A DNA stretch of 64,000 bases from Patescibacteria group bacterium (GTDB lineage Bacteria > Patescibacteriota > Patescibacteriia > Patescibacteriales > UBA12465): NCBI GenBank assembly GCA_049318005.1, contig JBMOHE010000003.1, positions 5,183-69,182 of the forward strand, in the 5' to 3' direction. Numbering within the stretch: position 1 is the first letter of the stretch; every line of letters begins with the position of its first letter. The notes beneath the pieces were generated by a model. That model saw nothing but the letters and a program-made list of their open reading frames with translations. It did not search any database and was not told the DNA's origin. Shown piece after piece: positions 6,379 through 47,161 of the stretch. A program made the position numbers and the translations under genes.

Positions 6379-6876
6379 TTATAAATCCGCCACAATCTTC
6401 AACTCCAAATTTTTATTACTAGTTTCTAAAATTGCGAAAGTCGCGGCGTTAAATACGCCCGCTAAAGTTCCTGGGTTAGCAATAATGAGTCCATCATCTT
6501 TCTCTAGCCAAGGTTTATGAGTATGGCCGTAAAAAATAAAGTCGAGTTTAAATGGAGCGAGCTCTTTTACTTTTCTAATTTTATCTGGTTCATGACAAAA
6601 ACCAATATTTACTCCAGCTATTTCGTTAACTGCAATCTCGCCGTAATAATTAATATTTGAGAATTTGCTTAAATCTTTTTCTTCGTAAAGGTCAGCGTTA
6701 CCTGAAACAATAAAAATCTCGCCTAAAAAGTTTTTAGCGAGATTTTTTACAGTATCTAAATTCGTTATATCACCACAGCAAATTAATTTACTTACTTCAT
6801 TTTCTTCGCAGTAGCTTAAACAGGTTTTTAAATTAGCTAAATTATCATGAATATCAGAAATAATTGCGATTAACAT
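6379..6876 (-). CDS. Metallophosphoesterase, YfcE/MJ0936 family
   Basis: Calcineurin-like motifs ISDIHDN, CGDI, GNAD and GHTH. Confidence 0.8.
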   Translation of the reverse strand: MLIAIISDIHDNLANLKTCLSYCEENEVSKLICCGDITNLDTVKNLAKNFLGEIFIVSGNADLYEEKDLSKFSNINYYGEIAVNEIAGVNIGFCHEPDKIRKVKELAPFKLDFIFYGHTHKPWLEKDDGLIIANPGTLAGVFNAATFAILETSNKNLELKIVADL

Positions 6877-6877
6877 A

Positions 6878-7453
6878 TTATTTCTTAGCGCGCAATTTTA
6901 TTTCATAAGTCATTTGCTCTAACTTACGTAAATGACCACGAGACTGATCGTATTTTGTTCTTAAATAGCCTGTCATGTCAAAATCAATTAACTGGCCCAT
7001 GATATCTTCAGCTAATTTTTTTATTTTTGCTACTTCAGAAAACTTTCCACTAGCGGCTTGGTTAGTTGCATAGCGAACAAGCTCTCCAATCATATCGCAA
7101 ATACCGCCTAAATAGGATTCATAGTCTAGAGTTAAACCTTTTACGGCTTCAATTGGTTTATTTTTAACAACTAAATATAAAGTTTTTCCTTCTAAGTATT
7201 CTTCAGCCGCGGCTTTATATGCGCCTTCGCGATGAAGTCTTTCAAAACCAAATCTTTCTTCTAAATTCTTTAAAGCTTTTTCTATTTCTTTAATTTTTGC
7301 CTCCGCGACTTTAAAATCTTGGCGTTGAAGAGCAAAAATAGTTTTCTTAGCTTCAAATAAAATATTATTAGAGGCGCTGATAATCTGGCGACGCTCTGAT
7401 TCGTTAGCTTGGTAATCTTTCTTTAATTGAACTAAAAATTTATCGTTAATCAT
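6878..7453 (-). CDS. Translin-family protein
   Basis: The C-terminal half aligns by eye to human translin. LDYESYLGGICDMIGELVR matches LDVEDYLSGVLILASELSR, GKFS matches GDYS, and LRTKYDQSRGHLRKLEQMTYE matches LRKRYDGLKYDVKKVEEVVYD. Confidence 0.6.
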   Translation of the reverse strand: MINDKFLVQLKKDYQANESERRQIISASNNILFEAKKTIFALQRQDFKVAEAKIKEIEKALKNLEERFGFERLHREGAYKAAAEEYLEGKTLYLVVKNKPIEAVKGLTLDYESYLGGICDMIGELVRYATNQAASGKFSEVAKIKKLAEDIMGQLIDFDMTGYLRTKYDQSRGHLRKLEQMTYEIKLRAKK

Positions 7454-7489
7454 ATATATTTTTGTTTATTCCGCCTTGGGCGGGTGTTA

Positions 7490-10400
7490 TTAAACTACTC
7501 GGAAAACTTCTTCAATGCTGGTTTCGCCATTTAAGGCTTTTAAAATACCATCTTGGAGCATCGAAATCGAGCCATCTTTAATAGATGCTTGCTCTACTTC
7601 AAAGTCAGTCGAATTTTCTTTTTGAATTAAAGTTTGAATTTCAGGAGTCATGGTAATTGTTTCATATAATCCTAAGCGTCCCTTATAACCAATCTTTCCA
7701 CATTTCTCGCAACCAACTCCGTGATAGAAAATTAATTTTTCAGGAATCTTAATTTCAGGATTATTTATCTGACCTAAAATATCTTGAACACGTTTTAAAT
7801 CTTCAGGGGATAATTCAACGGCCGCTTTGCAGTAAGGGCAGAGTTTTCGAACGAGACGCTGACCAATTGTAAATTCAATTGCATTGGCGAGTGTCTGTCT
7901 ATCAAGACCAAGGCCAGCAAAACGAGAAATCGCTCCAGCCGCGCTATTAGCATGGATAGTTGATAATACTAAGTGACCAGTTAAAGACGCTTCCATTGCA
8001 ATCTTAGCTGTTTCAGCATCACGGATTTCTCCTATCATCATGATATTAGGATTTTGACGAAGCAGAGAACGCATCGCTGCGGCAAAAGTATATCCGCCAG
8101 CTTCATCAATCTGAGTTTGCATGACGCCTGGTAGTTGATATTCAATCGGATCTTCAACGGTAATAATTTTTACATCCGGTTTATTTAATTTATTTAAGAT
8201 ACTATAAAGAGTCGTTGTTTTACCGCTACCGGTTGGACCAGTCGTAATAATAATACCGCGAGTTTTAGTCATCGCTTTCTCTAGCGCTTTAAGGGCGACT
8301 GAAGTAATACCTAATTTTTCCATTTCTAAATTAACCGCGTTAGTCGATAATAAGCGAATAACAATCGTTTCGCCGTAACCGCCAGCGATAATTGATAAAC
8401 GACAATCAAGCTTTTTATCAGGAAGATAAACACTAAAACGCCCATCAAAGGTTGCGCGTTTAATATTCGTAGCTTCGCCAGCTAGAATTTTTATTTCAGA
8501 TAATAATGGTAAGTAACTTGTTTTCGGTAGTTTCAAAATATCATGAAGCACACCATCAATACGGAAACGAATACTTACTTCTTTTTCAGTTGGCTCAATA
8601 TGAATATCGCCGGCATCATTAACAACCGCAAGGGCCATAACTAAATTAATCAATTCAGAGGTTGGGACTTCTTTGGCGTGTTCAGCAATTTTTTCTATAT
8701 TTTGGCTTAAATCTTTAGCCTTCGCATATTCTTCGGCTTTAATTTTAACACCACGACCAATAGTTTGAGAAATAACAATGTCGTAAAGTTCATTGATATA
8801 ATCAAAATTTCCAATTACTCGATAAACTTCCTCTAGTGATGTGCGACCCTCTATTACTTTCAAAACACCATCTTGAAGCATAGTTATCATTCCATTTTCA
8901 ATTGCTTGTTGAAGGATTTTAAATGAGGGAGCATTATCAATTGTTAATTGTTTTATCTTATCATCCATTGTAAATACTTCGTAGATTCCAAGACGGCCAT
9001 AATATCCTATAAAGTTGCAGGCCTCGCAACCAGCTCCGCCTTTATAAATTTTAGGAATAGTGGCTGGAATATTTAATCCCGCTTTTGGGGAAATAACCGC
9101 TAAAATTTTATTTATTTGTTCGCTTTCGTCATCATTTAAAACATGTTCTACTCGGCAATGTGGACAAACCTTTCTAAGAAGACGTTGGCCGATAACAGCA
9201 TTAATTGAAGGGACTAGAAAGTATGGCTTAACGCCCATATCAATTAACCGAGGAATTACTCCGGCAGCATCATTAGTATGAAGAGTTGATAGAACTAAAT
9301 GGCCAGTTAAAGATGCTTGAACAGCAATTTCCGCCGTTTCTAAATCACGAACTTCGCCAACCATAACAACGTTAGGATCTTGACGTAAGATAGAGCGTAA
9401 ACCGTCAGAAAAAGTATAGCCACGTTTTGTATCGACTTGGCTTTGGTTAATTCCTTTTAATTGATATTCAATTGGATCTTCGAGAGTAATTATTTTCGTG
9501 CCTGGTTGGTTAAGCTTGTTAATAACTGCGTATAAAGTAGTTGTTTTTCCGCTTCCAGTCGGACCGGTTGTTAGAATCAAGCCGTTTGGTTTGCTTATTT
9601 CTCTTTTTAAAATTGGAATTATTTCTGGACGAAAGCCTAATTCATCAAGGTCTAAAGAGGCGGTCGAGGAATCAAGCAAACGCATAACAACGCTCTCTCC
9701 GAAGGCAGTTGGCAGAAAAGAACTTCGAACATCTATATTCTTTTTTGATAAATGGATAGTATAGCGGCCATCTTGGGGCTTATCTTCAATATTAATTTTA
9801 ACGCGAGCTAGTATTTTCAAACGAGAAATAATTTTTTTCCATTTATCACGATTAATAATAGCCGCTTCTTGTAAAACGCCATCAATTCTTAATCTTATAA
9901 CAACGCCGGTTTCTTCAGCCTCAATATGGACATCACTCGCCCTAACTTTTAAAGCTGTCGCTAAAATTAAAGTAATGACATCGCTAATATTAACATCGTT
10001 TATTTTATCGTTTAAACTTTTATAACTTGAAATGTCGGCTTTAAATTGTTCAAGGCTAGCCTCGCTAATTTCGATGCCGCTATCATAACGTTTTACTTTT
10101 GGTACATTGGCGTATTCTTCAAGCGCGCGATCAAGGCTATTTTTTGAAATTAAATATATTTTTCCGGCCGCAAAATACTGTTCAGTTAAACGTTCAAGCT
10201 CGCTCTCTGTTCCAATAGTCTTTTCTAAACATCCGAGTCTAATATTTTTACCATCATAGTAGAAGCAAACCAGATTAAGTTCGCGAGCCACGTCTTCTGG
10301 TATTAAAACAATCGCATCTGGGCTTACCGGGAAACTAGCTAAATTAACATAATCAAGACAAAGCAGCTTCGCCTGCTTTTCTGTTTGTTTTTCTATTTCC

Positions 10401-10501
10401 TTGAGTTTAATTTCGGTTTGCTTTTTAGCAAAACGACCGGTGACACTTTCTTCGTCATCGGTCGGATTAATCAAGTTTTTTATTGAAGCTAAATCGCTCA
10501 T
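7490..10501 (-). CDS. Tandem-duplicated type II/IV secretion (PilB/GspE-like) ATPase, 1003 aa
   Basis: There are two complete ATPase modules in one ORF. Walker A GPTGSGKTTTLY occurs at nt 9542-9565 and 8216-8239. Asp box ITLEDPIEY and ITVEDPIEY. His box GHLVLSTLHTN and GHLVLSTIHAN. Tetracysteine motifs CPHC...CEAC and CPYC...CEKC. An N-terminal T2SSE_N-like region is present. Confidence 0.9.
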   Translation of the reverse strand: MSDLASIKNLINPTDDEESVTGRFAKKQTEIKLKEIEKQTEKQAKLLCLDYVNLASFPVSPDAIVLIPEDVARELNLVCFYYDGKNIRLGCLEKTIGTESELERLTEQYFAAGKIYLISKNSLDRALEEYANVPKVKRYDSGIEISEASLEQFKADISSYKSLNDKINDVNISDVITLILATALKVRASDVHIEAEETGVVIRLRIDGVLQEAAIINRDKWKKIISRLKILARVKINIEDKPQDGRYTIHLSKKNIDVRSSFLPTAFGESVVMRLLDSSTASLDLDELGFRPEIIPILKREISKPNGLILTTGPTGSGKTTTLYAVINKLNQPGTKIITLEDPIEYQLKGINQSQVDTKRGYTFSDGLRSILRQDPNVVMVGEVRDLETAEIAVQASLTGHLVLSTLHTNDAAGVIPRLIDMGVKPYFLVPSINAVIGQRLLRKVCPHCRVEHVLNDDESEQINKILAVISPKAGLNIPATIPKIYKGGAGCEACNFIGYYGRLGIYEVFTMDDKIKQLTIDNAPSFKILQQAIENGMITMLQDGVLKVIEGRTSLEEVYRVIGNFDYINELYDIVISQTIGRGVKIKAEEYAKAKDLSQNIEKIAEHAKEVPTSELINLVMALAVVNDAGDIHIEPTEKEVSIRFRIDGVLHDILKLPKTSYLPLLSEIKILAGEATNIKRATFDGRFSVYLPDKKLDCRLSIIAGGYGETIVIRLLSTNAVNLEMEKLGITSVALKALEKAMTKTRGIIITTGPTGSGKTTTLYSILNKLNKPDVKIITVEDPIEYQLPGVMQTQIDEAGGYTFAAAMRSLLRQNPNIMMIGEIRDAETAKIAMEASLTGHLVLSTIHANSAAGAISRFAGLGLDRQTLANAIEFTIGQRLVRKLCPYCKAAVELSPEDLKRVQDILGQINNPEIKIPEKLIFYHGVGCEKCGKIGYKGRLGLYETITMTPEIQTLIQKENSTDFEVEQASIKDGSISMLQDGILKALNGETSIEEVFRVV

Positions 10502-10504
10502 AGT

Positions 10505-11482
10505 CTATTTTTTTTGGAATATTCTTTCTAATTTAGCAGTAGCATTATTCTCCTTTAAATGTAAATATAAATCAGTCCAGACGGTAATTTGAAAAGTTGT
10601 TAGAATTGATCCAAAGGTTACTATAAATACTAAACATAAAAATAGAACTAGGAAGCTTAGCCAAGTTAGTGAGAAAATAAGACTTAGCCAAAGGAAAGGG
10701 AAGAAAATAATGGCAGCAATAATAAGAATAAGGGCGGTTGAGACAAAGCTTATGATAAAAAGAATTAGAGCAATCTCTAAACTGATTAGCCAGTTCTTCT
10801 TGAAAATTGAATAAGCCTTTTCCATTGATTGAACTAAGCTTTTATTTTCTAAAACGCGACAAGAGATTGCGTATTTTATAATCAAAGATAAAGAGACTGA
10901 CACAGGAACAAAGATTACAAACAAAATAGTATAAGCAATAACAAATGCATAGTTAGTGCTCATAACCATGAATAACAAAGGTAGACTGATAATAAAGAAG
11001 GCAAAGCTAATTAAAAGCTTTATCAAAATATTTAAACCTAAAACTGACCAAAAATGGGTATTGCCAATAGTTAAACCCTCACGAACTGTTAAATTCGAAA
11101 TTTTCTTTTTGCTACTTAATATTTTTTTGACATTATCAACTAGAGCGGCTTGAGAACTTATTGCTAGCCAGACAAAAACAGCTATTAAAGTTAGTGTTAA
11201 CAATAGAATTGTTATGGCATTAATAATGACAAGAAAGTTCTGGCCAGCTAAATTAATGATTCCAAACCAAACTAGTTGGCAGAACTCATTAATGGCTAGT
11301 AAGGTATTTAGACCTTGGTAAGAGCTATCTATAATTCCTTGGCCAAAGGTTTGAGTTATAAACTGGTATTCCATTGATCCGCCAGCGATTGCTAGTGACG
11401 CAAAAAGGCCAAAAAACCATAAATATTTATGATTCCAGACGATTGACCAGGCCTGTTTTAAAATTGAGCGATAAGAGAGCAT
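10505..11482 (-). CDS. Polytopic membrane protein, unknown function
   Basis: Multiple long hydrophobic segments. The stop lies 3 nt upstream of the pilB-like start, suggesting the same operon. Confidence 0.6.
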   Translation of the reverse strand: MLSYRSILKQAWSIVWNHKYLWFFGLFASLAIAGGSMEYQFITQTFGQGIIDSSYQGLNTLLAINEFCQLVWFGIINLAGQNFLVIINAITILLLTLTLIAVFVWLAISSQAALVDNVKKILSSKKKISNLTVREGLTIGNTHFWSVLGLNILIKLLISFAFFIISLPLLFMVMSTNYAFVIAYTILFVIFVPVSVSLSLIIKYAISCRVLENKSLVQSMEKAYSIFKKNWLISLEIALILFIISFVSTALILIIAAIIFFPFLWLSLIFSLTWLSFLVLFLCLVFIVTFGSILTTFQITVWTDLYLHLKENNATAKLERIFQKK

Positions 11483-28701: not shown

Positions 28702-31700
28702 ATGAAATCAGAATTACTCGCCAAATTAAATAAAGCGCAAAAAGAAGCTGTCACTCATGACGAGGGACCGCTTTTGATTGTCGCTGGGGCCGGTACAGGG
28801 AAGACGACAGTTTTAATTAACCGCCTGGCCTATTTAATTATGGAGAAAAAGGTCCCTAGCGATGAGATTCTTTTATTAACCTTTACTGAGAAAGCGGCTG
28901 GCGAGATGGAGGAAAGGTCTGATAAGATTTTGCCCTATGGTTATACTGATTTATGGATTAATACTTTTCATGGCTTTGGTGAAAGATTGCTTCGTGAACA
29001 CGCGTTAGACGTCGGTTTAAGTGCTAACTTCAAACTATTAACCGCGACCGAACAATGGGTTTTAATTAAGAAAAATTTGGAGCGTTTTAATCTTGATTAT
29101 TACAAACCGCTTGGCAACCCAACTAAGTTTATTTCGGAATTAATAAGACATTTTTCAAGGTTAAATGATGAAAATATTTTAGTTGATGAATATCTTGAGT
29201 ATGCTAATAATTTAAAAGAGACTGACGAGGGGAATGCAGACGAAGACGATGAGGACGGAAGTATGGGCCTAGATAATGTTCGTGTTAAAGAATTAGCTAG
29301 CGCTTATGAAATATATAAACAGCTACTTCTTGAAAATAACTATTTAGATTTTGGTGATTTAATTGTTTATACAATTAAACTTTTTAAAGAACGACCAAAT
29401 ATTTTAAAATATTACCGATCTAAATTCAAATATTTGATGGTTGATGAGTTTCAGGATACTAATTTAGCACAGTATGAATTAGTAAAATTATTAGCAGCGC
29501 CAAAAAATAATTTAGTTGTTGTAGGAGACGATGATCAGGCGATTTATAAATTCCGTGGTGCTTCAATTTCTAATATCATGCAGTTTAAGGATGATTTTAA
29601 AGGAACCAAGGAATTAGTTTTAACAGAGAATTATCGCTCTCGTCAGGAAATTTTAGATCATGCTTATAAGTTTATTCAAAACAATAATCCTAATCGTCTT
29701 GAAGATAAATTAAAAATTGATAAACGTTTGATCGCCAAGGGTGATGTTAATAAAAAAGCAAAAAAAGAAGCGGCTTTAAAATTTTATAATTTTGAAACGG
29801 CTGCTGATGAAGTTGCCTTTGTTGCTCAGAAAATAGCCGAAACCTATGAGAAAAACCAAGAGAAGGGCGAAGAGGCTTTATGGTCAGATTTTGCGATTTT
29901 AGTAAGAGCTAACGAAACTGCCGATGCTTATGTCAAAGAGTTGAATCGCTATAATATTCCCAATCAGTTTATGTCTTGGCGCGGTTTATATTATAAGCCT
30001 TTAATTTTAGATATTTTGGCATATTTGCGACTTCTTGATAACTACCATGAATCAGCTGCTCTATTTAGGGTTTTGAATATGGAAATTTTTAAAGTTTCCC
30101 ATTTAGATCTTGTAACTATTAATAAAATGGCCGCGCGTAAAGTTTGGTCTTTATACGAAGCTTTATATAATATTGATAAAATTCCTGATATTAGCGAAGA
30201 GAGTTATAAAAATATTAAAAAACTATTAGATTTAATAGCTAGGCATTCGCTCATGGTCGCTACTCAAAAACCAACGAAGATATTTTTAACTTTTGCTTAT
30301 GAATCAGGTCTTCTTGAGGGCTTTGATCATGACAGAGATTTGGAACTGTATTCATATTTAAATCAGTTATATCAGAAAATAAAGCGCTTAGAAGAAAGTG
30401 AGCCCGACTTAAGACTAAAAGATTTTTTAAGTATTATAAATTTAGAATTAGAAGCGGGTGAAACTGGATCATTAAAATTAGATTTTGCCGATAATGAAAC
30501 GGTAAAGATTATGACCGTCCACGGGTCTAAGGGCTTAGAGTTTAAATATGTTTTTATTGTTAATTTGGTTGATAAAAAATTTCCGACTATTGCTAGGGGA
30601 GAAAAAATATCCTTGCCTGATGCTTTAGTTAAGGAAAAAATTATTGGTAGTTCTGATTTTCACTTAGAAGAAGAGCGCCGTTTGTTTTATGTAGCGGCGA
30701 CTCGTGCTAAAGAAGAGTTATATTTAAGTGGCGCTAAAGATTACGGCGGCGTTAGAGAGAAAAAACCATCTCGTTTTATAAGTGAGATGGAGCTTACTAG
30801 CTCAATCTTGCCAGAATTAAAACTTTCGCAAAAAAATGAGTTTTTACGCGATCTCCATTATTTAAATTCGCGTGAAATAGTTGCGAGCAGCGAAAAGATG
30901 GCCGCTGAAAAATACCCTCTTCCGGAAAAATTTTCATTTTCGCAGTTAGCGGCTTTCTCAACTTGTCCGCTGCAGTATAAATTTGCTTTTGTTCTAAAGA
31001 TTCCTGCCTCGACCGATAAATCTAGTTTAATTTTTGGTCGCGTACTTCATAATACTTTATATAATTTTTTATTACCGGTTTTAAGTGAGCGCCAGAAAAT
31101 GGAAGGTACTTTATTTGGGGATTCAGAAAGCGGAGAGAGTAAGAAAAAAATTTCACAGTATTTAAATGAAAAAAGACTCTTAGAAATTTACGAAGAATTT
31201 TGGGTAGCTGATGGTTATGACACAAAAAAAGAAAGAGACGACTATAAAAAGAAAGGAATAGATGCTTTACATAAATTTTGGGCCGCGTATAGTGCTAATC
31301 CGCCTAAAGAAATTTTCTTTTTAGAAAAAAAGTTTTCTTTTAAGATTGAAGGCGATATTATTAAAGGCGCGATTGATAGAATTGATAAACATGCTGATGG
31401 TAGTTTAGAAATTATTGATTATAAGACCGGAAAAACAAAAATAAAATTAGCTTATAGTGAAAAACGCCAGTTAATTCTTTATCAACTGTTTATTGAAGAA
31501 TTTTTGCGAGTGAAAGTTAGTGCTTTAAGTTATTATTATTTAGAAAGTGGTGAGAAGTTTACATTCACTGCGACCGCTAAAGATATAACTAAATTGAAAT
31601 TAGAAGTTAGAGATGAGATTGCGGCAATTAAAAAACGCGATTTTACGCCAACCCCATCACCTATGTGTGGCTTCTGCGATTTTAATTCAATTTGCGAATT

Positions 31701-31713
31701 TAAACAGCGTTAG
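28702..31713 (+). CDS. UvrD/PcrA-type superfamily 1 helicase fused to a C-terminal PD-(D/E)XK Cas4/AddB-like nuclease
   Basis: Walker A GAGTGKTT, DEFQDT, and VGDDDQAIYKFRGA. The C-terminus has CPLQYKF...DRID...IIDYKTGK...CGFCDFNSIC, which is a nuclease motif plus a 4-Cys cluster. Confidence 0.85.
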   Translation: MKSELLAKLNKAQKEAVTHDEGPLLIVAGAGTGKTTVLINRLAYLIMEKKVPSDEILLLTFTEKAAGEMEERSDKILPYGYTDLWINTFHGFGERLLREHALDVGLSANFKLLTATEQWVLIKKNLERFNLDYYKPLGNPTKFISELIRHFSRLNDENILVDEYLEYANNLKETDEGNADEDDEDGSMGLDNVRVKELASAYEIYKQLLLENNYLDFGDLIVYTIKLFKERPNILKYYRSKFKYLMVDEFQDTNLAQYELVKLLAAPKNNLVVVGDDDQAIYKFRGASISNIMQFKDDFKGTKELVLTENYRSRQEILDHAYKFIQNNNPNRLEDKLKIDKRLIAKGDVNKKAKKEAALKFYNFETAADEVAFVAQKIAETYEKNQEKGEEALWSDFAILVRANETADAYVKELNRYNIPNQFMSWRGLYYKPLILDILAYLRLLDNYHESAALFRVLNMEIFKVSHLDLVTINKMAARKVWSLYEALYNIDKIPDISEESYKNIKKLLDLIARHSLMVATQKPTKIFLTFAYESGLLEGFDHDRDLELYSYLNQLYQKIKRLEESEPDLRLKDFLSIINLELEAGETGSLKLDFADNETVKIMTVHGSKGLEFKYVFIVNLVDKKFPTIARGEKISLPDALVKEKIIGSSDFHLEEERRLFYVAATRAKEELYLSGAKDYGGVREKKPSRFISEMELTSSILPELKLSQKNEFLRDLHYLNSREIVASSEKMAAEKYPLPEKFSFSQLAAFSTCPLQYKFAFVLKIPASTDKSSLIFGRVLHNTLYNFLLPVLSERQKMEGTLFGDSESGESKKKISQYLNEKRLLEIYEEFWVADGYDTKKERDDYKKKGIDALHKFWAAYSANPPKEIFFLEKKFSFKIEGDIIKGAIDRIDKHADGSLEIIDYKTGKTKIKLAYSEKRQLILYQLFIEEFLRVKVSALSYYYLESGEKFTFTATAKDITKLKLEVRDEIAAIKKRDFTPTPSPMCGFCDFNSICEFKQR

Positions 31714-38471: not shown

Positions 38472-41264
38472 ATGACTAAAAAAATTAAATTAATTCTTTT
38501 TATTTTTGGCTTCATTGCTTTGGCATTTGTGGCTAATTTTGCTTTTGCTCAAAGTGGAAATGATACCTTCGGGATTGAAAAAACCAATACTGCACTAAAT
38601 GGTTCCTTGGGCATTTCTGGTACTGACCCAATTTTAGTTGCAAGCCGGGTTATCCAAATTGCTTTAAGCTTTTTAGGCATGCTGGCTTTAATTTTAACGA
38701 TTTATGCTGGGTTCCTTTGGATGACTTCTAATGGGGAAGAAGATAGAGTTACGAGAGCTAAGATGATTTTAAGAAACGCTGTTATTGGCCTTCTTATTAT
38801 TTTAGCCTCCTGGGCAATAGTAACTTTTGTAATTAGTAAGTTGGTTGGAGTGACTGGTGGTGGAGCTAATAATCCTGGCGCCTATACTGGTGGCAATTTT
38901 TCTGACCCTGGGACTGGAGCAATCGGTTCTTGTACGGTAGGTATTTTTTATCCCGAGAATGATCAAAAAGACGTTGCTAGAAATACTTCTATTATCATTA
39001 CGTTTAAAGAAGAAATAAAACTAGATACAGTTTGTATAAATGATTCGGGTGATGCTTGTGAATGCGGAATAATTGATAATGGAAAAACATGTAATAAAAT
39101 TAATCCTAAAACAATTAGAATATTTAAAACGGATTTAGGTGATGCTTGTTCAAGTGGATCATGTCCAAATACTAATGCCAACGCAACCGATGTAACCGTT
39201 TCAGTTTCAAGCGATAAAAAAACTTTAATTTTAACTCCCCTTTCTTATCTTGGTAGCCCAACTACAAACTTTTGGTATTCGGTAAAGATAGGTAGTGATT
39301 TAAAAAAGATTGATGGTTTGTCGATGTTTAAATCTTGTGCAAGTGATTATTTTGTTTGGAAGTTTGAAGTTAGTAATCGCTTAGACTTAACTCCTCCCCA
39401 GGTTGTGTATGGAAAAATATTTCCTCGGCCAGATAATCAAGAAGATGTTGCCAATGAAACACAGGCCGCTCTTCCTGCCAAGGCTTTGCTTTCCGTTAGC
39501 GCCTGTCCAAATACTTATAGCAGCTCAACTATAGTTAGTGTTACTCCTGACGGAAATTCTCCGGCCGCGAGCGCCTTGCCTTTGGCGTATAGTGGTGATT
39601 TGAAAAAATTTAGAGTAGTCGTTTCTAATGACTCAAAAGACAAAGTTCAGTTATTCGACGGCAATGATGATAAAAATTTATTAGGAGTAGCTGATTTCGA
39701 TGTACAAGGAAATGCTAAGTTTAATAATTTTTTTATTTTTAAGGCGGAAGATCGTAGTGTTGGCAACGCCTGGATAGTTAATGTAAAACCTGAAATTAAT
39801 GCCGACGCCTTAACTATCGGCGATGAAGTTTATACCTTTGTTTCTGGTCCTTTAGGAAATAATAACATTCCTGTTCCAAATAATTGTGGAACCATGAGTA
39901 ATGAAGAAAAAATGACTTTAGTTTCTACGGTTTATTCTGTTCTTAGTGGTGATCCATTAGTTAAGCCAGAGATAAACGCTAATGGAATAATGTTGATAGC
40001 TAAGGTCGCTGGAGTCAGCGGTAATAATATTAATCTTTCAACTACTAATCCTAGCGCTATCCAAGTTCAGGCTTTTAAAGACGGAATTGATTTTAAAAAT
40101 ATAGCAAAAACTCTTGATAAAAAAGATGTGCCAATGAATACTGTTATTCAAGTTAACTTTAGTGAGGCGATTAATCCTTTAAAAATTTCTGGTCTTGCCT
40201 CCGAGGTTAAAGATTATATTAAAGTTGTTAATTATGATTTTGCGACCGCCAAGGCTAGTAGCTCTCCTTGCACTTTGAATAAAGATTGTCGCTCATATAA
40301 ATGTGAAGGAGCTGTTGGAGCTAAGACTTGTATTGGCGATTATGTAAATGGAAAATTTTTAGTTAGTAATTCTTACAAAACAGTTGAGTTCGTTTCTGAT
40401 AATGAATGTGGCGTTAATGGATGTGGTGAAAAAATTTATTGCTTGCCAGCTGATAGCCATTTAACAGTAGAATTAAGATCCGCTGATTTAAAGGTTTGCT
40501 CAACTAACGATGATTGTTTAGCTTTGGCCCCTTATAGCGGTTGCGCTTCTACTACTTTAGGATATAAAACTTGTCAAAACACAGATGGCAAAAATTATCC
40601 AAGCGCAAATGGAGATCTAAATGGTGTTATTGACGCATCATTAAATTCCTTTGATGGTGATAGAAATACTTATTCTGATGGTCCGATAAATTATTTTAGT
40701 GATAACTACAGTTTGGCTGATCTTAATAATTTAAATAAAAAAGATAATTACAGATGGAATTTTTATGTTAATGATCAGATAAACACCACTCCACCACAGA
40801 TAGAAGAGATTACCCCTTCCCAAGGAAATATGGGAGTAAATCTTGCTGAGCCTATAAAAATTACTTGGAATACTTTAATGATGAACAGTAGTTTGACGAC
40901 TGGTAGCAGCATGGTGAAAAATGGATCAAGCACGGTTGAACATAAACTAATTAATTTGAAGAGTACGACGCCAACAGCGATTGGATATTGGGTTGAAAAT
41001 GATAATGTTGATACGGAGTACTCTAAAGGAGGGGTTATAATCCCTCTTGATGGAGAGCCAGATAAAACAATTTCTTATATAAAACACACCGCTTTTTCAG
41101 AAGCTATGTCTTACCGCGCTCAGGCTGGGTCAGGAATTAAAGATATTTATCAAAATTGCTTTAAGCCAAGCGCTGATAAGAATTGTCCCGTAACTGCCAC
41201 TAATCCATCTTGTTGTTTCGGAAAAGCAACTAGCACTCTAAGTGCTGATGGTAATTGCCAGTAG
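38472..41264 (+). CDS. Giant surface protein 1 (930 aa): signal peptide + VirB2/TrbC-like two-helix module + Cys-containing Ig-like ectodomain
   Basis: Signal peptide ending AFA-Q. Two hydrophobic helices flank YAGFLWMTSNGEEDRVTRAK. A Gly-rich linker follows, then SbsA-Ig-like segments (for example NTSIIITFKEEI, NTVIQVNFSEAI, EPIKITWNTLM) and multiple Cys pairs. Confidence 0.8.
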   Translation: MTKKIKLILFIFGFIALAFVANFAFAQSGNDTFGIEKTNTALNGSLGISGTDPILVASRVIQIALSFLGMLALILTIYAGFLWMTSNGEEDRVTRAKMILRNAVIGLLIILASWAIVTFVISKLVGVTGGGANNPGAYTGGNFSDPGTGAIGSCTVGIFYPENDQKDVARNTSIIITFKEEIKLDTVCINDSGDACECGIIDNGKTCNKINPKTIRIFKTDLGDACSSGSCPNTNANATDVTVSVSSDKKTLILTPLSYLGSPTTNFWYSVKIGSDLKKIDGLSMFKSCASDYFVWKFEVSNRLDLTPPQVVYGKIFPRPDNQEDVANETQAALPAKALLSVSACPNTYSSSTIVSVTPDGNSPAASALPLAYSGDLKKFRVVVSNDSKDKVQLFDGNDDKNLLGVADFDVQGNAKFNNFFIFKAEDRSVGNAWIVNVKPEINADALTIGDEVYTFVSGPLGNNNIPVPNNCGTMSNEEKMTLVSTVYSVLSGDPLVKPEINANGIMLIAKVAGVSGNNINLSTTNPSAIQVQAFKDGIDFKNIAKTLDKKDVPMNTVIQVNFSEAINPLKISGLASEVKDYIKVVNYDFATAKASSSPCTLNKDCRSYKCEGAVGAKTCIGDYVNGKFLVSNSYKTVEFVSDNECGVNGCGEKIYCLPADSHLTVELRSADLKVCSTNDDCLALAPYSGCASTTLGYKTCQNTDGKNYPSANGDLNGVIDASLNSFDGDRNTYSDGPINYFSDNYSLADLNNLNKKDNYRWNFYVNDQINTTPPQIEEITPSQGNMGVNLAEPIKITWNTLMMNSSLTTGSSMVKNGSSTVEHKLINLKSTTPTAIGYWVENDNVDTEYSKGGVIIPLDGEPDKTISYIKHTAFSEAMSYRAQAGSGIKDIYQNCFKPSADKNCPVTATNPSCCFGKATSTLSADGNCQ

Positions 41265-41269
41265 AATTT

Positions 41270-44200
41270 ATGTTTAAAAAAAATTCGAAAAAATTAATCG
41301 CCCTTTCCTTACTAATGAGTGGACTATTATTTGCGCGCTTTGCTTTGGCGCAAGATTTTGGTACGGAAATAGTTAATAATAGTTTAAATGGATCGCTAGG
41401 CACAATGACCGATCCTCGTGAGCTGGCCGGTAGAATAATAAATATAGCCCTCGGCTTTTTAAGTGTTGTTGCTGTTGGGTTTATTCTTTATGCCGGTTTT
41501 CTTTGGATGACTTCTAATGGCGAGGAGGACAGAATAACAAAAGCTAAACAAATTTTAAGAAGTGGCCTTATTGGTCTTGGTATAATTTTATCTTCTTGGG
41601 CGATTGCAAGTTTTGTAATTTTAAAATTAAGTGGAGCGATAGGTAGCGATGGAAATAGTAATGGTGGTGGCTGTTTAGAAAATACTGTTAGTCCTTGTGG
41701 TTGCGGAGGATCAATGATTTGTAGTAATGGATTTTATGGTGCTTGTGTGGGATCAAATTTAGATAATTGCTCTAATCCGCCAACTAGTTGTGATTCTAGC
41801 TCGACCCCTGGTTGTCAGGCGGCTAGTCAAATTTGTGCAGCTGGAGATTATTGTGATAATAGTTGTCTTTGCCAGACTAAGGCGGAACTAGGTGACTCTT
41901 GCGATGCTGACTTAAATAATCAAACCTGCGATGTTGATAATAATCGTTGCGCTGAATATTTAACTTGTAATCCTAATACTTGTTTATGTGATGGACCGCC
42001 GGCAATTACCGGCATGAGTCCTATCGGGGGTTTCTGTAGTAATGATGCTAGTAAATCTTGTGCGAAAGACGCTGATTGTGGAGAGGGAAATACTTGTAAT
42101 GATAACACCCCAAACGGCGCGGCTAATAATTTTATTACTATCTCAGGAACGAACTTTGGCGAATACTCAGCCACTAATAGTAAGATTGTATTTTTAGGAG
42201 GTGATCAGTCAAATTCAATTTCTGGTCCCGGTGAAAGCGAAGACCCGATTGGCCCTCCAATTGGCGTGCCCGCAACTGCGCGCGAAGCCGTTTCTCCCTC
42301 AGTTATCAATCCTTCATGTATTAGTTTTTGGCGCAACGATCAAATTGTTATTGCGGTTCCATCTGGTGTTCAAACCGGGCCGATAAAAGTTACTAACAAA
42401 GAAGGTTTGAGCGATATTACTAACGATAACTTTGGTCCTTCATTGCCTGATTTTGTTGCTAACGGAATAAGTCGTCCTGGTCTTTGTGATTTAGACCCGG
42501 TTAAAGGATCTTTAAGCTCAGAGGTTAACTATCAGGGCGTAAATTTATATTCAGGCAAAGCTTACTTCGGCAATTATAAAAGTAATGTTAGTGGTTTATA
42601 TTCAAATTTTAATGTCGCTTCGGGTTTATCTGGAACCTCGACAACCCCAAATATTCGCGAAGGTGAGTCCGGAAGTTTTGTTGAAACTGTTGTAAATGGA
42701 TCTTTACAAAAAAGTAATTATCTAAAATTCATAAAAGACAGAGAAGAAGGAGATGGTCCCTATATCATGTCTTTCTCGCCAATTGATGGTGCTCCTGGCC
42801 AATATGTAACTATTAAAGGATCTGGTTTCGGTGGCGCAAAGGGTGAAAATAAAGTTTATTTTGTTACAGGAAATAGTAAGATTGAAGCTTCTTATGCTTT
42901 TCCGGCAATTTGTGCTAATTCAGTTTGGGGAGAAAATCAAATAATTATTAAAGTTCCAGCACTTATCGCTAATGATAGTTATCAGCTTGAAGTTCAAATT
43001 GCCTCAACTACACTTTCTACTCAAAGATTGAATCCAAATACTTTTGGCGTTAATGATTCTCTTAAATTAAGACCAAGCTTGTGTAAAATGGACCCGGTCA
43101 CGGGACCAATTGATACCCCACTTATTCTTTGGGGAGAGTATTTTGGTAAAGTTGGTAGTAATGGCCTAGTTCAGTTTAATTTTAGACAGAATGCTAACGG
43201 AATAATTAAAAATGAAAATGAAGCCAATGTAATAAATACCAGCGTGCCAAAGATGGCGCTTACTGGTCCAGTTAAAGTTATTAATAATGAAAGCGGAAAT
43301 GAATTAAATTTTTCAGTTAGCGAATGCACAAAAAATGAGGAATGTAATAATCAAGTTTGTTGCCCTCAAAATACTTATAGAAAGGGTCGTTGTGTAAATG
43401 ATTTAAGCGAGTGCGTCGTAGATATCCCAACTTCAGTTTATGAGTGGAGTTTTAGTACTAGCTTTGACGCTAGCACAACACCAAAATTTTCTAGTTGCTT
43501 AGGTTTATCTAAATACTTGGGCTCTTGCTATCAAGGGGCTATGTGCCCTAATAGTGCTGGTGCCTGTTCATCACCTTCAACTAGTTATGATAAGGTCGTC
43601 GGTTCTTGCGACGTAACTTGTAATAATGTCCCTGGATGTAGTTCGGCAACTTGCGGCTATGATAAAGATTTAGATAAATGCGTTAATAAATCTACGGAAA
43701 AAGTTTGTGATCTATCTAGTTCTATTAGTTTTGAGGCTAGCGATTATTCAATTAAAGACGCTAAGCCAAATACAACTGAAAAAAAATGTAATAGCGAGGG
43801 AAAGTGGGAAATTAAAGCTCAAACTTCTTGCCCAATTGGCTGGACTAAGGGTCTGAATAATGCTTGTACTCAGGATGATTCTAGTTGTAATCTTTGTGCG
43901 GATAAATTAACTTGCGAAAAAGTTGGGACTACAAATAAATGTGTTTCAGAAAAATTATGTAAAGATAGTCAAGCGATTTGTCTTGATAATTTAGATAATT
44001 TAGCATCCCCTGACAACTGTATAATTAAAGTTGCTCCGAGTTGTGAGTGCTGTTGTCGTATAGGGAAAGACACTGAAGACTGCTGCGCCCCCTTAACTTG
44101 CGCTGGTAAATGTGGATCCGATGTAACGGCTAATTCTAATACTTATGGGTCATGTTCTGGATGTGCTGCAGTTGGTACAACGCAAGATGCTCATGACTCG

Positions 44201-47161
44201 GCCTGTAATTGCGCAAATAGTTCTGGTAAATATTGTTCAATTTCTTCTTCAACTCCGCAGGGAATTTGTACGGATTGTGCCGGGATTGATACTCAAGAAA
44301 GTTGCGGCGATCATTCTTCAGTCTGCTGCTTTGACGCAAACAAGACCGCTACAACAACTGATGATGTATGTCGTGGACTTGGTTCCAATAAAGTTTTGAG
44401 CGTAAATAAAAATGACAAAGCAAATTACGGATATTGTGCTTTCTTTAATTGCCAAGTTGCTCCAGCCGATCCATTAATTTGCGCTTCAACTACTCCGGTA
44501 AAAGTCGGCTCTTATACAATAGAAGGGGACTGTGTATCATCTTGCCTTAAAGGTAGTGATGATATTTGTGCTGGTCTTAAGACTAAAGATGCTTGTTCTA
44601 ATGAGAGCGCCTGTTGTTTTGATTCTGTAACAAAAAAGTGTAAGTCTGGAGGAAAAATTACCGCAGGAGTAGATAATGGTTATTGCGCTTATTATAATTG
44701 TAATGATGGCGATCATCTTTCCTGTTCCTTAGTTGCTTCAACAACTGGTAAATTTATTGACCCTGTAAAATGTGATGATAGTTGTGCTAACCCACCAACT
44801 GGTGCTGGTTTGGGCTGCATGACGTCGACTGCTTCTACCACTTGTAATTTTAATTTATGTACAGCGTCTGGACTTAGTTGTTTACAGGACACAGGCAATT
44901 CGCCTATTTCAATTGGCGGCGAATATCCTAGTTGCGGTACATGTTGTTGTCAGCCTAAAACTGATACAACTGCTGACTCTTGCAAGAGTCCACTAACTCC
45001 AAATCTTTTTTGTCAGGCTGACACTGGATCATGCTCCGGCGCTAGTCGTGGATTATGCTGTGGTTGTACTAGTGATAGTGATTGCGGAGGAGAAGTAACA
45101 ATTGGTTGTGGCCTTGATTCCTGTTGCCAGGCTCGTCCAAAAGTTTCTTCTACTCAGCCTTCTATAGATGCCACTAATATTTGTCGAAACGCGGCCATAA
45201 AAATTACTTTCAATCAGAAAATGGATACTAATAGTTTCCTAAATAATTTTATTTTATTTGAAGAAAAAACATATGGTAATGGCATCTGTCCTGCCGGTAC
45301 GTTTTTAGCTGATGCCAATGCCGTCTCGGAAATTGCTAGAGCGCAAAATAAAAATATCTTTGTTCGCCTTTGGGAGAATATAAAAACAAAGACAGCTGCG
45401 ATATTTAATCATAAAAATAGCCAAGCCTTGGGGGCAGCGCCAAGTGCAGATAAATTATATTGTTCAGTCCCAGGCACAGTTAGTTCTGAGGATAGTGGTC
45501 CTCAAACTAGCTTAGAGTTTACTCCCGAAAAAGCTCTTTCTCCAGCGACAAACTATTATGTAGTTGTTAAAGGGGACGAAACCTTAACTAGCAAGGCTGG
45601 TGTATTAAGCGCGTCTCAAATTGGAATGAATGAAGCAGGTTTCAGAGAGGCAACGGTGATTACTAATGGAGTTAATAAAAATTATACAACTAAATTTACA
45701 AATGCTGTTCACTTTAATAATTTAAGCTATAAAAATGCTTATAGTTATAAATTTACAACTTTATCTGACCAGGGGGTTTCGGCTGGAATCTGTGCAATTG
45801 AATATGTAACGCTTGGTCCAAGTTCTTATCTTTTCAAAACAACAACAAATGCATTAAACGAAAAAGATGATAATAGCGACGCTACTTTTGACACGGCAAT
45901 TGATGGTGATAAGGCTTTTACGGCCGCCGCTTATAGTTCTAATAACCAATTGCTTTACCCGGTTGTTGGTTACGCTTGGGATTGGAAGTGGATAGTTATA
46001 GATCCTTCAGTCGTCGATATTTCTACTAAACCGCTTAATCTTCCTGAGACCAGAAAGTTAATTACTGCTAAAACGGGAGTAACTGATGGACAAACAATAA
46101 TAAGAGCTACGATTGATATGAGCAAATATAGATCTGGTTGCGGAAGTTCTTGTAATGCTTTTGCGGTGGGCGACGGTCAGACTGCTTCTAGTGATATCTA
46201 TGTTTTTCTTTGCAGTAATCCTTGGCCGGCTGTAAAAGTTGATGGTACTTGGAGTCCTTGGAATGATGCGGGGGCAAATTGTTCTATGGGAGTAGCCAAT
46301 TCTTGTGATAATTTTAATTATAAATTCTATTATTGCCGAGATGCTGGTGGTCCGGGAACGCTGGATGACTTGCCGGCTATTAATAATTCTCCAATTACAC
46401 GTAGCGGAAATTTATTATGTAGTTTAGATAATACTCCTTGTTCAATAATTAATTCCCCATGTGGAGCGGAAAATAAGGGGGTTTGTCTTTGGAACATTCT
46501 TAAAGAATCGTATTTTTTCAGAGAAGCAATTTTAAGTGGAGCAACGATCAGCTCGGCTTATAGTACGGGCAAGGGAGGGGAAGTAAGAATCGTCTGGCAG
46601 TCCCCAGCCGCGAACGTTGCTTCTTACAAAGTTTATTATTTGCAATCAGGTAACGGCACCATGCTCTCTAAAGAATTTAAAGCGCTTGGGACTGGTGGAG
46701 TTTGTTCTAGCGGCTCAAATATTAATACTTGCAACACGATCATATCCGGTTTAAATAACACCCAAGACTACATTTTCAAAGTAAGTGTAATTTCTGTTAA
46801 TAAAACCGAAAGTTCTTTTTCCAATGAGCTTACTGCTAAACCAACTGATGTCTATCCGCCAGCCATACCAGCCGGGTTAAAGTTTGAAGTAATTGGAACA
46901 CAAATTAAATTTTCTTGGACACCAGACGCAGATAAAACAGTTGTTTATCGTCTTTACCATGGCGTTGCTTCAGGAAAGTATGCGGAATCATTTGATTCGG
47001 CTCCAGGCTTATCTACTATGACTTTAGACTTAAATATTTTGAAATCTGGCAAGAACTACTTTGCTCTTTCAGCTATTGATAACGCGAAGAATGAAAGTGC
47101 GAAGTCAATCGAAAAAATTGCCGATATGGTTAATGGCTTGATTGTTAACCCAGCTAACTAA
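41270..47161 (+). CDS. Giant surface protein 2 (about 1963 aa): paralogous VirB2/TrbC-like module + very Cys-rich region + IPT/TIG-like, Ig-like and FN3-like domains
   Basis: The ATG at 41270 lies 6 nt after the upstream stop. The N-terminal module YAGFLWMTSNGEEDRITKAK is paralogous to that of the 38472 gene. IPT/TIG-like repeats (FITISGTNFG, YVTIKGSGFGG, LILWGEYFG). Two C-terminal FN3-like segments (VRIVWQSP...YKVYY, IKFSWTPD...YRLYHG). Confidence 0.8.
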   Translation: MFKKNSKKLIALSLLMSGLLFARFALAQDFGTEIVNNSLNGSLGTMTDPRELAGRIINIALGFLSVVAVGFILYAGFLWMTSNGEEDRITKAKQILRSGLIGLGIILSSWAIASFVILKLSGAIGSDGNSNGGGCLENTVSPCGCGGSMICSNGFYGACVGSNLDNCSNPPTSCDSSSTPGCQAASQICAAGDYCDNSCLCQTKAELGDSCDADLNNQTCDVDNNRCAEYLTCNPNTCLCDGPPAITGMSPIGGFCSNDASKSCAKDADCGEGNTCNDNTPNGAANNFITISGTNFGEYSATNSKIVFLGGDQSNSISGPGESEDPIGPPIGVPATAREAVSPSVINPSCISFWRNDQIVIAVPSGVQTGPIKVTNKEGLSDITNDNFGPSLPDFVANGISRPGLCDLDPVKGSLSSEVNYQGVNLYSGKAYFGNYKSNVSGLYSNFNVASGLSGTSTTPNIREGESGSFVETVVNGSLQKSNYLKFIKDREEGDGPYIMSFSPIDGAPGQYVTIKGSGFGGAKGENKVYFVTGNSKIEASYAFPAICANSVWGENQIIIKVPALIANDSYQLEVQIASTTLSTQRLNPNTFGVNDSLKLRPSLCKMDPVTGPIDTPLILWGEYFGKVGSNGLVQFNFRQNANGIIKNENEANVINTSVPKMALTGPVKVINNESGNELNFSVSECTKNEECNNQVCCPQNTYRKGRCVNDLSECVVDIPTSVYEWSFSTSFDASTTPKFSSCLGLSKYLGSCYQGAMCPNSAGACSSPSTSYDKVVGSCDVTCNNVPGCSSATCGYDKDLDKCVNKSTEKVCDLSSSISFEASDYSIKDAKPNTTEKKCNSEGKWEIKAQTSCPIGWTKGLNNACTQDDSSCNLCADKLTCEKVGTTNKCVSEKLCKDSQAICLDNLDNLASPDNCIIKVAPSCECCCRIGKDTEDCCAPLTCAGKCGSDVTANSNTYGSCSGCAAVGTTQDAHDSACNCANSSGKYCSISSSTPQGICTDCAGIDTQESCGDHSSVCCFDANKTATTTDDVCRGLGSNKVLSVNKNDKANYGYCAFFNCQVAPADPLICASTTPVKVGSYTIEGDCVSSCLKGSDDICAGLKTKDACSNESACCFDSVTKKCKSGGKITAGVDNGYCAYYNCNDGDHLSCSLVASTTGKFIDPVKCDDSCANPPTGAGLGCMTSTASTTCNFNLCTASGLSCLQDTGNSPISIGGEYPSCGTCCCQPKTDTTADSCKSPLTPNLFCQADTGSCSGASRGLCCGCTSDSDCGGEVTIGCGLDSCCQARPKVSSTQPSIDATNICRNAAIKITFNQKMDTNSFLNNFILFEEKTYGNGICPAGTFLADANAVSEIARAQNKNIFVRLWENIKTKTAAIFNHKNSQALGAAPSADKLYCSVPGTVSSEDSGPQTSLEFTPEKALSPATNYYVVVKGDETLTSKAGVLSASQIGMNEAGFREATVITNGVNKNYTTKFTNAVHFNNLSYKNAYSYKFTTLSDQGVSAGICAIEYVTLGPSSYLFKTTTNALNEKDDNSDATFDTAIDGDKAFTAAAYSSNNQLLYPVVGYAWDWKWIVIDPSVVDISTKPLNLPETRKLITAKTGVTDGQTIIRATIDMSKYRSGCGSSCNAFAVGDGQTASSDIYVFLCSNPWPAVKVDGTWSPWNDAGANCSMGVANSCDNFNYKFYYCRDAGGPGTLDDLPAINNSPITRSGNLLCSLDNTPCSIINSPCGAENKGVCLWNILKESYFFREAILSGATISSAYSTGKGGEVRIVWQSPAANVASYKVYYLQSGNGTMLSKEFKALGTGGVCSSGSNINTCNTIISGLNNTQDYIFKVSVISVNKTESSFSNELTAKPTDVYPPAIPAGLKFEVIGTQIKFSWTPDADKTVVYRLYHGVASGKYAESFDSAPGLSTMTLDLNILKSGKNYFALSAIDNAKNESAKSIEKIADMVNGLIVNPAN

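Follow-up and report, generated by a model that had tools for sequence, protein, structure and literature searches.

Characterised ATPases of the PilB/GspE (PulE, EpsE)/PilF type (PDB 5TSH, 5OIU, 4KSR) have a single motor core per chain and work as homohexamers. In the PilB hexamer, the rigid unit consists of the N2 domain (N2D) of one subunit packed on the C-terminal domain (CTD) of the next, N2D(n) on CTD(n+1); the ring runs a C2-type rotary cycle, and ATP is held between the CTD and the N2D of one and the same module (PMC5424180). Whether the working symmetry of such rings is C2, C3 or C6, in which direction they rotate, and whether the membrane platform is a dimer or a trimer are matters of debate (PMC5424180, PMC6858323, PMC10790770). 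Here we analyse a tandem ATPase of this type encoded in a 64,000-nucleotide stretch of a Patescibacteria group bacterium genome (GenBank assembly GCA_049318005.1, contig JBMOHE010000003.1, forward-strand positions 5,183 to 69,182; hereafter the window). Its 1003-aa chain resembles the known proteins in having the same full N2D and CTD core and motifs in each module and a single, putative N1/MshEN-like domain at the N-terminus, but it carries two cores per chain, with one N1 domain for both, and its gene lies outside any pilus or type II secretion system (T2SS) cluster in the neighbourhoods examined.

Two homologous P-loop modules per chain are also found in KaiC (RecA-type CI and CII) and in the type II AAA+ proteins p97, NSF and ClpB, with KaiC and p97 forming stacks, although these belong to other ATPase families. 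In the α3β3 rings of F1 and V1, two kinds of module alternate, in F1 as separate chains with one set inactive; this alternation is comparable only if the window protein forms an alternating ring, and again the ATPase family is different. Thermus PilF repeats its N-terminal GSPII/N1-type domains and keeps a single ATPase core, whereas in the window protein the core itself is repeated. Both T. thermophilus PilF, at about 900 aa (PDB 6F8L, 5OIU), and the window protein are PilB-type ATPases enlarged by internal repetition. The platform protein PilC/GspF (Cyto1/Cyto2, with the split Tad counterpart TadB/TadC) would follow the same logic, a tandem duplication by which a six-fold ring becomes a trimer of two-module chains (PMC10790770), but there the duplication is universal and lies on the membrane-platform side, here on the motor side. 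PilC/GspF, the tandem ring ATPases and Thermus PilF come closest in architecture; the nearest functional parallel is Acinetobacter baylyi, in which PilB and TfpB act as two non-redundant extension motors, both needed by one pilus machine (PMC8213720). These are likewise two diverged PilB-class ATPases, but they are separate proteins, whereas here the two are joined covalently in a fixed 1:1 ratio. How two extension motors share one platform is an open question, and temporally distinct roles have been proposed for PilB and TfpB (PMC8213720).

Full-text searches, in a collection that excludes most subscription journals, brought up no account of a tandem ATPase of the PilB, GspE or PilT-like kind, and neither did term searches of a 2024 review of PilB regulation, a protein-family survey of the Candidate Phyla Radiation (CPR) and a paper on type IV pili (T4P) in Saccharibacteria. 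Such sequences have been public since 2015 as "General secretory pathway protein E" or "GspE/PulE family protein". The parts are textbook PilB/GspE; the arrangement departs from the textbook and has apparently gone without comment.

The gene lies at 7490..10501 on the minus strand (ATG start, stop codon at 7490-7492) and forms a single unbroken open reading frame (ORF); the coordinates of all its parts were confirmed by re-translation. The Pfam family T2SSE (PF00437) matches it twice, at aa 170-561 and about 612-1003, with 780 bits in total against a cut-off of 24.9. One chain of 1003 aa with two complete PilB/GspE modules, each holding the full set of motifs, had been proposed in a first-pass annotation made from the letters alone; the Pfam matches, a motif scan and an alignment of 69 two-module proteins bear this out and place the modules at aa 170-563 and 612-1003. 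The order of domains is N1-N2D1-CTD1-linker-N2D2-CTD2. The N1 domain (MshEN/T2SSE_N-like, aa 49-131, 10109..10357, minus strand) occurs once per chain, ahead of module 1, and module 2 is without it. It matches PF05157 with 22.4 bits (E = 1.2e-4), slightly below the cut-off of 23.1 bits, is annotated with the same family in many homologues, and appears in the AlphaFold2 (AF2) model as an alpha/beta domain with a predicted local distance difference test (pLDDT) score of 71-89.

In module 1, the N2D (aa 170-282, 9656..9994, minus strand), delimited by motif alignment, contains RLRIDG and the arginine-finger candidates R246 and R259. The CTD that follows (aa 283-563, 8813..9655, minus strand), recognised by its motifs and by Foldseek, holds Walker A at aa 313-320 (nt 9542-9565), the Asp box E341/E345, the catalytic E383 of the atypical Walker B, the pore-loop residues D386/E388, the His box H401/H408 and the Zn cysteines C446/C449/C492/C495. 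Module 2 repeats this layout: its N2D (aa 612-724, 8330..8668, minus strand, again from motif alignment) contains RFRIDG with the arginine-finger candidates R688 and R701, and its CTD (aa 725-1003, 7493..8329, minus strand, from motifs) holds Walker A at aa 755-762 (nt 8216-8239), the Asp box E783/E787, the catalytic E825, D828/E830, the His box H843/H850 and the Zn cysteines C888/C891/C931/C934. The motif scan placed the two Walker A strings (GPTGSGKT) at aa 313 and 755, the two His boxes (LTGHLVLST) at aa 400 and 842, and CxxC pairs at aa 446/492 and 888/931. AF2 modelled the full-length monomer with a mean pLDDT of 82.5 and a predicted TM-score (pTM) of 0.50, and Foldseek matched the model to the PilB/PilF cores 5tsh, 5oiu and 6olj in the PDB (target TM-scores 0.89-0.93), each module having the fold of a PilB core. 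The search found no PDB chain with two such ATPase modules. A 100%-identical NCBI protein is labelled "GspE/PulE family protein [Patescibacteria group bacterium]".

The two halves align by BLASTP from aa 142-563 to aa 584-1003 with 44% identity over 423 aa (E = 1e-126), and the trimmed cores of the modules are 46.5% identical. Homology between the halves is detectable from aa 142 and aa 584 onwards, and module 2 therefore also holds a copy of the helices that connect N1 with N2 in module 1. At the DNA level, pairwise alignment of the halves by blastn gave two matches only, one of 335 nt at 68% and one of 101 nt at 70%. Between the same halves megablast gave no match, and their longest common exact word is 12 nt, in line with the earlier statement that the halves are diverged in DNA. 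Because of this divergence, collapse of a repeat and a chimeric assembly are excluded on sequence grounds.

A linker of about 45 aa had also been noted between the modules. It is present at aa 564-611 (8669..8812, minus strand), but only about 20 aa of it are unique. From aa 584 on, the linker is homologous to aa 142-169 of module 1, the connector between N1 and N2; the fusion-specific stretch is limited to aa 564-583 and includes a conserved helix, DYINELYDIVISQTIG, at aa 567-580. The motif G-[DN]-x-x-Y-[IV]-E-x-[LM]-Y...R-G-[IV]-x-I recurs in 12 of the 14 two-module clusters described below, the cluster of the window protein itself (P0121) counted. In the AF2 secondary structure, the linker elements (helix 567-580, strand 584-586, helices 589-598 and 602-611) mirror those of module 1 (strand 142-144, helices 147-156 and 162-167). 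A Pfam scan of the linker gave no match, and its ratio of nonsynonymous to synonymous substitution rates (dN/dS, Nei-Gojobori, close orthologues) is 0-0.13. We also considered whether helix 567-580 duplicates the helix that closes N1 (aa 120-132), given the parallel in AF2 secondary structure and an alignment that looked possible by eye; the claim was dropped after profile-profile comparison with hhalign returned E = 0.56 and aligned other pieces.

The fused architecture is widespread. A search of 5.8 billion proteins clustered at 90% identity yielded 120 clusters, all of 1003-1007 aa, with 100% query cover and 73-100% identity; their named members are Patescibacteria or Candidatus Falkowbacteria and carry only the labels "GspE/PulE family protein" or "PilB". 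A further scan, limited to the junction region (aa 520-665), went through GTDB with one genome for each species. The junctions of 12 diverged clusters were too variable for use, and a closer 15-sequence alignment served as the query, so the scan covers the Falkowbacteria-like family only. It returned 318 candidate species genomes confirmed by tblastn, and the locus counts given here and below refer to the best 80 of these. The whole junction is covered in 80/80 loci at 66-88% identity and is uninterrupted in every one of them. A single ORF runs across the entire protein in 75 loci; in four the ORF is truncated by contig ends, and in the remaining one (L090) it starts at aa 227. The L090 ORF spans aa 227-1003 only, with N1 and the start of N2D1 missing or frameshifted and the junction intact. 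Two closed chromosomes, CP066698.1 (977 kb) and OW818634.1, contain the fusion, the former in the same gene order as the window: arginyl-tRNA synthetase, a 326-aa membrane protein, the fused ATPase, a Translin-family protein, a metallophosphoesterase and UvrA.

These data bear directly on the possibility that two adjacent genes were wrongly joined, or that a repeat was collapsed or chimerically assembled. Nothing was found that speaks for it. Since the junction is intact in 80/80 loci, a chimeric join or an overlooked stop or frameshift is excluded for practical purposes; these are independent species-level assemblies, the two closed chromosomes among them, the halves have no longer DNA word in common than the 12 nt given above, and the linker itself is under purifying selection. 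We regard the chance of an artefact as negligible. The first-pass annotation's reading of an old duplication rather than an assembly error stands, and a search of CPR genomes for the same fusion, which it had proposed, recovered it from no fewer than 80 genomes at species level. The product is truly one polypeptide, which arose by internal tandem duplication of a CPR PilB/GspE-type motor core. The duplicated unit comprises N2D and CTD together with the N1-N2 connector, and N1 was retained by the first module only. Many TPA_asm records that hold the fused gene in Falkowbacteria-type synteny (L015, L016, L018-L020 and others) are titled "uncultured Gammaproteobacteria bacterium", a label that looks like a placeholder or an error.

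More distant relatives were collected by HMMER from 1.84 billion representatives at 50% identity (E <= 1e-30). Among 16,122 relatives, 14 of the top-scoring ones have two full modules: P0138 and the set P0121-P0133, about 13 clusters of 978-1018 aa that share 39-64% identity with the query and belong to Falkowbacteria and Parcubacteria/Paceibacterota. Where members of the diverged clusters carry an organism name, it is "Parcubacteria group" (KKU82539.1, a deposit of 2015) or "Candidatus Paceibacterota". A large CPR lineage has the two-module architecture as a fixed trait. In a neighbour-joining tree, module-2 sequences of the main family form a clade in about 60% of 100 bootstraps, and its module-1 sequences do not separate from single-module CPR PilBs. 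Mean pairwise identity across the diverged main family is 42% for module 2 and 49% for module 1, module 2 being the somewhat faster-evolving one; the mean identity among module-2 sequences (42.4%) is barely above that between modules 1 and 2 (41.7%). The shared linker motif favours a single origin of the main family, short of proof.

Three two-module proteins depart from this pattern, their own modules being sisters in the tree: P0130 (L005:3226-6213; modules 73% identical in protein and 76% in DNA over 1133 nt; bootstrap 100), P0128 (L009:10001-12985; modules 55% identical in protein; bootstrap 95) and P0138 (bootstrap 97). The linkers of P0128 and P0130 are shorter than, and different from, that of the main family, and in all three proteins the module-to-module similarity is raised along the full length. 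As the modules are each other's closest relatives, either duplication was repeated or whole modules were homogenised by gene conversion, and for P0130 and P0128 the alignments point to one of these two, recent re-duplication or whole-module gene conversion. We do not claim independent duplication for P0128, P0130 and P0138, since whole-module gene conversion within an old fusion would look identical. In another cluster, the fused P0122 and, in another CPR genome, the single-module P0146 occupy the same slot, flanked by a DHH-family gene and RuvB, so that there the fused gene is the positional counterpart of an ordinary single-module PilB.

P0138 (1047 aa; L006:10001-13144; GCA_964384625.1, contig CAYLNH010000035.1) is encoded in an apparently non-CPR genome, where its neighbours are sulfatases and a pair of extracytoplasmic function (ECF) sigma and anti-sigma factors. 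From the N-terminus, the chain combines a platform-type T2SSF domain (78.5 bits), a first module whose Walker A is dead (GPTGSGTTT, with DAR for DGR) and a second, intact one, uniting a platform domain, a pseudo-ATPase and an ATPase.

The two modules of the window protein were scored against profiles of the secretion ATPase classes. Module 1 with N1 scored 500 bits for GspE, 478 for PilB, 248 for ComGA and 181 for PilT; module 2 scored 441, 402, 239 and 156 bits, respectively. The NCBIfam cut-offs are 630.25 bits for GspE (TIGR02533), 675.65 for PilB (TIGR02538) and 319.1 for PilT (TIGR01420). It counts against a narrow assignment that the single modules lie below the equivalog cut-offs of both PilB and GspE, and the whole protein exceeds them only because the scores of its two modules add up. 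We therefore file the protein under the broad T2SSE/PilB-GspE family and as an orthologue of neither PilB nor GspE. Both modules carry the tetracysteine Zn motif, whose distribution marks the PilB/GspE clade as opposed to PilT/PilU and FlaI (PMC5424180); the motif scan found no AIRNLIRE-like motif in either; and the tree places both among CPR PilB-type sequences. Judged by these sequence features, both modules belong to the extension (PilB/GspE) class and neither is PilT-like.

This class assignment bears on a suggestion of the first-pass annotation, that the modules have specialised as a PilB-like extension half and a PilT-like retraction half of one bidirectional motor. Bifunctional single ATPases do exist in Tad pili, CpaF being the example (PMC11300603, PMC12019362), and a separate pilT gene was not seen in the window, although this absence says little because the window represents only some 64 kb of a roughly 1-Mb genome. 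Against such a merger stand the PilT scores, far below both the GspE scores and the PilT cut-off, the lack of AIRNLIRE in both modules, the two Zn motifs and the nesting of both halves within CPR PilB-type sequences in the tree. With both halves in the extension class, a PilB and a PilT in one chain is unsupported, and we consider the idea very improbable.

Residue conservation was assessed in the alignment of 69 two-module proteins, which extends down to 38% identity; residues conserved in at least 90% of sequences are termed nearly invariant. Functional roles are known for E357, E395, D398/E400, H413/H420 and R271/R286 of Geobacter PilB (PMC5424180), and the correspondences used here are by motif position only and hence presumptive. 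In module 1, K319, E341, E345, E383, H401, H408, R259, C446, C449, C492 and C495 are invariant and R246 is nearly so. In module 2, K761, E783, E787, E825, H850, R688, R701, C888 and C934 are invariant, and H843, C891 and C931 nearly invariant. The acidic residues of pore loop 1 that follow the catalytic Glu are similarly preserved: D386 and E388 are nearly invariant, D828 is invariant and E830 nearly invariant. Each module also conserves both N2D arginine-finger candidates (R246/R259 and R688/R701), which match R271/R286 of PilB_Gm by motif position. The Nei-Gojobori dN/dS of close orthologues (dS 0.6-1.0) ranges from 0.008 to 0.024 in module 1 and from 0.014 to 0.033 in module 2. Within the close family, pairwise identity averages 81% in the core of module 1 and 79% in that of module 2, with 63% in the linker and 66% in N1. 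By motif position, both modules keep all the residues that ATP binding, Mg coordination, hydrolysis and sensing between subunits are known to require. Purifying selection acts on the two with equal strength, and neither half is decaying.

An arrangement in which one module is a catalytically silent scaffold or regulator, with active and inactive sites alternating as in the α3β3 ring of F1-ATPase, has a precedent in the unrelated P0138, whose module 1 has Lys replaced by Thr in Walker A, DAR for DGR and a changed Asp box. The 12 most diverged main-family representatives keep the motifs in both modules with few exceptions, and these, all in module 2, also lend the idea some support: the first Arg of RxRxDG is lost in P0131, P0132 and P0133, the whole RxRxDG in P0129 and Zn cysteines in P0123. 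In the family of the window protein itself, however, all catalytic residues of both modules are invariant or nearly so and dN/dS is about 0.01-0.03 for both, and we judge a silent module improbable. That both sites look catalytically intact had been stated at first pass on the evidence of a single sequence; the 69-sequence alignment and the low dN/dS argue for the same, and loss of essential residues in one half was not seen in that alignment.

How the two modules are arranged in the working motor is a matter of structural reasoning. We lean towards a single six-module ring built from three chains, with modules 1 and 2 alternating; the pseudo-hexamer of three chains suggested in the first-pass annotation is thus plausible. 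Because PilB hexamers are "beads on a string", a fresh tandem duplicate could join such a ring without evolving a new interface. The linker would covalently tie one of the two kinds of packing unit, and all packing units would be heterotypic, N2D1 on CTD2 and N2D2 on CTD1. In a C2 cycle, where opposite positions share a state, alternation would pair a module 1 opposite a module 2, and each position would go through all nucleotide states, which would explain why neither site has decayed. P0138, whose module 1 is without the Walker A lysine, would then be the contrast to this two-site constraint.

Towards the membrane, a ring of three chains would have three N1 domains and would expose two non-identical N2D surfaces in strict alternation. 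For the PulE/PulF system, a model based on AlphaFold-Multimer and cross-linking describes a platform trimer in which Cyto1 and Cyto2 alternate and contact one N2D each, giving a PulE:PulF ratio of 6:3 (PMC10790770). A tandem motor would offer such a platform two different N2D partners in fixed register, matching the 6:3 model. Of the positions fixed within each module, 15 of 38 in the N2D and 22 of 113 in the CTD carry different residues in the two modules (Fisher p = 0.017), an enrichment consistent with an alternating ring on a Cyto1/Cyto2 platform. The more specific proposal that a C3 trimer of two-module PilB docks in register on a C3 PilC trimer, with N2D1 and N2D2 each specialised for one Cyto domain and three N1 domains as anchors, is tentative and, in our estimate, less likely than not.

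Several observations weigh against the alternating ring. The N2D enrichment is equally expected under stacked rings or if N2Ds simply evolve faster. The AF2 model of CTD1-linker-N2D2 (aa 283-724; pLDDT 85.8, pTM 0.67) scores too low to claim domain packing, and together with the full-length model (pTM 0.50) it leaves the geometry between the modules unfixed. A ring with three N1 domains would, moreover, depart from the presumed 1:1 pairing of N1 with GspL/PilM.

Some of these points fit a stacked double ring of six chains, in which a ring of modules 1 with six N1 domains faces the platform and a ring of modules 2 lies beneath it, adding power, processivity or regulation, as in KaiC or p97/NSF/ClpB. 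Natural tandem ring ATPases most often stack, which we count in its favour. The order CTD1-linker-N2D2 would permit a head-to-tail stack whose top ring retains all six N1 domains, the many fixed differences between N2D2 and N2D1 are what one would expect if N2D2 were off the platform, and the monomer models do not show a confident CTD1-N2D2 packing. On the other side, the acidic pore-loop-1 residues of module 2 (D828/E830) are conserved, though possibly for catalytic reasons, and module 2 is constrained as much as module 1. A ring-ring interface is not known in the family, and no two-module PDB chain was found; a new duplicate would fit the three-chain ring with the contacts already in place. 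Stacking is in our estimate unlikely, though the principal competitor of the alternating ring, and other arrangements share the probability that remains beyond these two.

If the docking in register proposed above is correct, the protein would be a natural, obligately alternating hetero-ring in the PilT/VirB11 superfamily and a mirror, on the ATPase side, of the internal duplication of the platform; its occurrence in the main family, P0128, P0130 and P0138 would suggest 3+3 rather than six-fold as the relevant symmetry. Engineered fusions such as EpsE-Hcp1 (PDB 4KSR/4KSS) were needed to stabilise the hexamer. A natural covalent dimer would go further, with the order of subunits set, both sites active and a 2 x 3 alternation, and it would allow alternate ring positions to be mutated, which is impossible in a homohexamer. 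It would offer a natural handle on the working symmetry and on the stoichiometry of motor to platform. The two-module ATPase is in addition a lineage marker and may reflect an adaptation of CPR pili, which are thought to serve host attachment and DNA uptake. A specialist would probably find a tandem motor surprising.

The gene belongs to a compact minus-strand group. Upstream, a 325-aa polytopic membrane protein (10505..11482, minus strand) ends 3 nt before the ATPase start and is found in 77/80 loci. Downstream, across a 36-nt gap, lies a gene for a Translin-family protein (6878..7453, minus strand; PF01997, 69 bits; 78/80 loci), followed after 1 nt by a YfcE-type metallophosphoesterase (6379..6876, minus strand; Metallophos_2, 101 bits; 77/80 loci), whose product also scores 76 bits for TIGR00040 yfcE, above the cut-off. 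The 325-aa protein has no Pfam or NCBIfam match, and hydropathy predicts about 5-6 transmembrane segments and no large cytoplasmic domains. It was considered as a hidden platform protein and rejected, given that it matches no family and its topology is unlike that of PilC. It may or may not be functionally linked to the ATPase and is missing from the contexts of the more diverged fused clusters. The neighbours in those clusters differ and are recurrently DNA-metabolism genes (PolA and TsaE, DHH, RuvB/RuvC, PolX). In diverged lineages, fused and single-module CPR PilB genes alike (L003, L007, L009, L010) repeatedly adjoin RuvB and often DHH or PolA/TsaE. Either conserved synteny of housekeeping genes or a connection with DNA uptake and recombination may lie behind this neighbourhood; for a bias towards competence or DNA uptake it is a weak hint.

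By homology, we infer that the tandem ATPase powers assembly of a type IV pilus-like or competence-type filament. Speaking against this role, no gene for a platform protein (pilC, T2SSF), PilM/N/O, a pilin, a prepilin peptidase or PilT was found in the 64-kb window, and no pilus or T2SS genes lie beside the fused gene in the seven fused-gene neighbourhoods examined; with no such genes nearby, the link to a pilus machine rests on homology alone. According to one survey, T4P components are widespread and often co-localised in CPR (PMC6744442). The sole direct link to a pilin comes from a single-module relative, P0169: the gene after it is pilin-like and carries an N_methyl motif.

Other features of the window were recorded in passing. 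GC skew in 2-kb bins is positive throughout the window, where most long ORFs are on the plus strand, except at 6-10 kb; in those bins, home to the larger part of the minus-strand ATPase operon (6379-11482), it turns negative. A second ORF of exactly 1003 aa at 28702-31713 (plus strand) encodes an AddA/UvrD-type helicase with a C-terminal PD-(D/E)XK nuclease; that its length equals that of the ATPase is coincidence. Three consecutive giant ORFs of 930, 1968 and 1494 aa follow at 38472-41264, 41255-47161 and 47203-51687 (plus strand). The first two begin with a T4SS_pilin-like (PF18895) segment, after which come Big_5, TIG and fn3 domains; Pfam matches nothing in the third. All three probably encode large proteins of the cell surface or of adhesion. 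Some 2.7 kb downstream of them, an ORF at 54405-55616 (plus strand) has an RVT_1 reverse-transcriptase domain (86.6 bits); a group II intron, a retron and a diversity-generating retroelement are the candidates for its identity.

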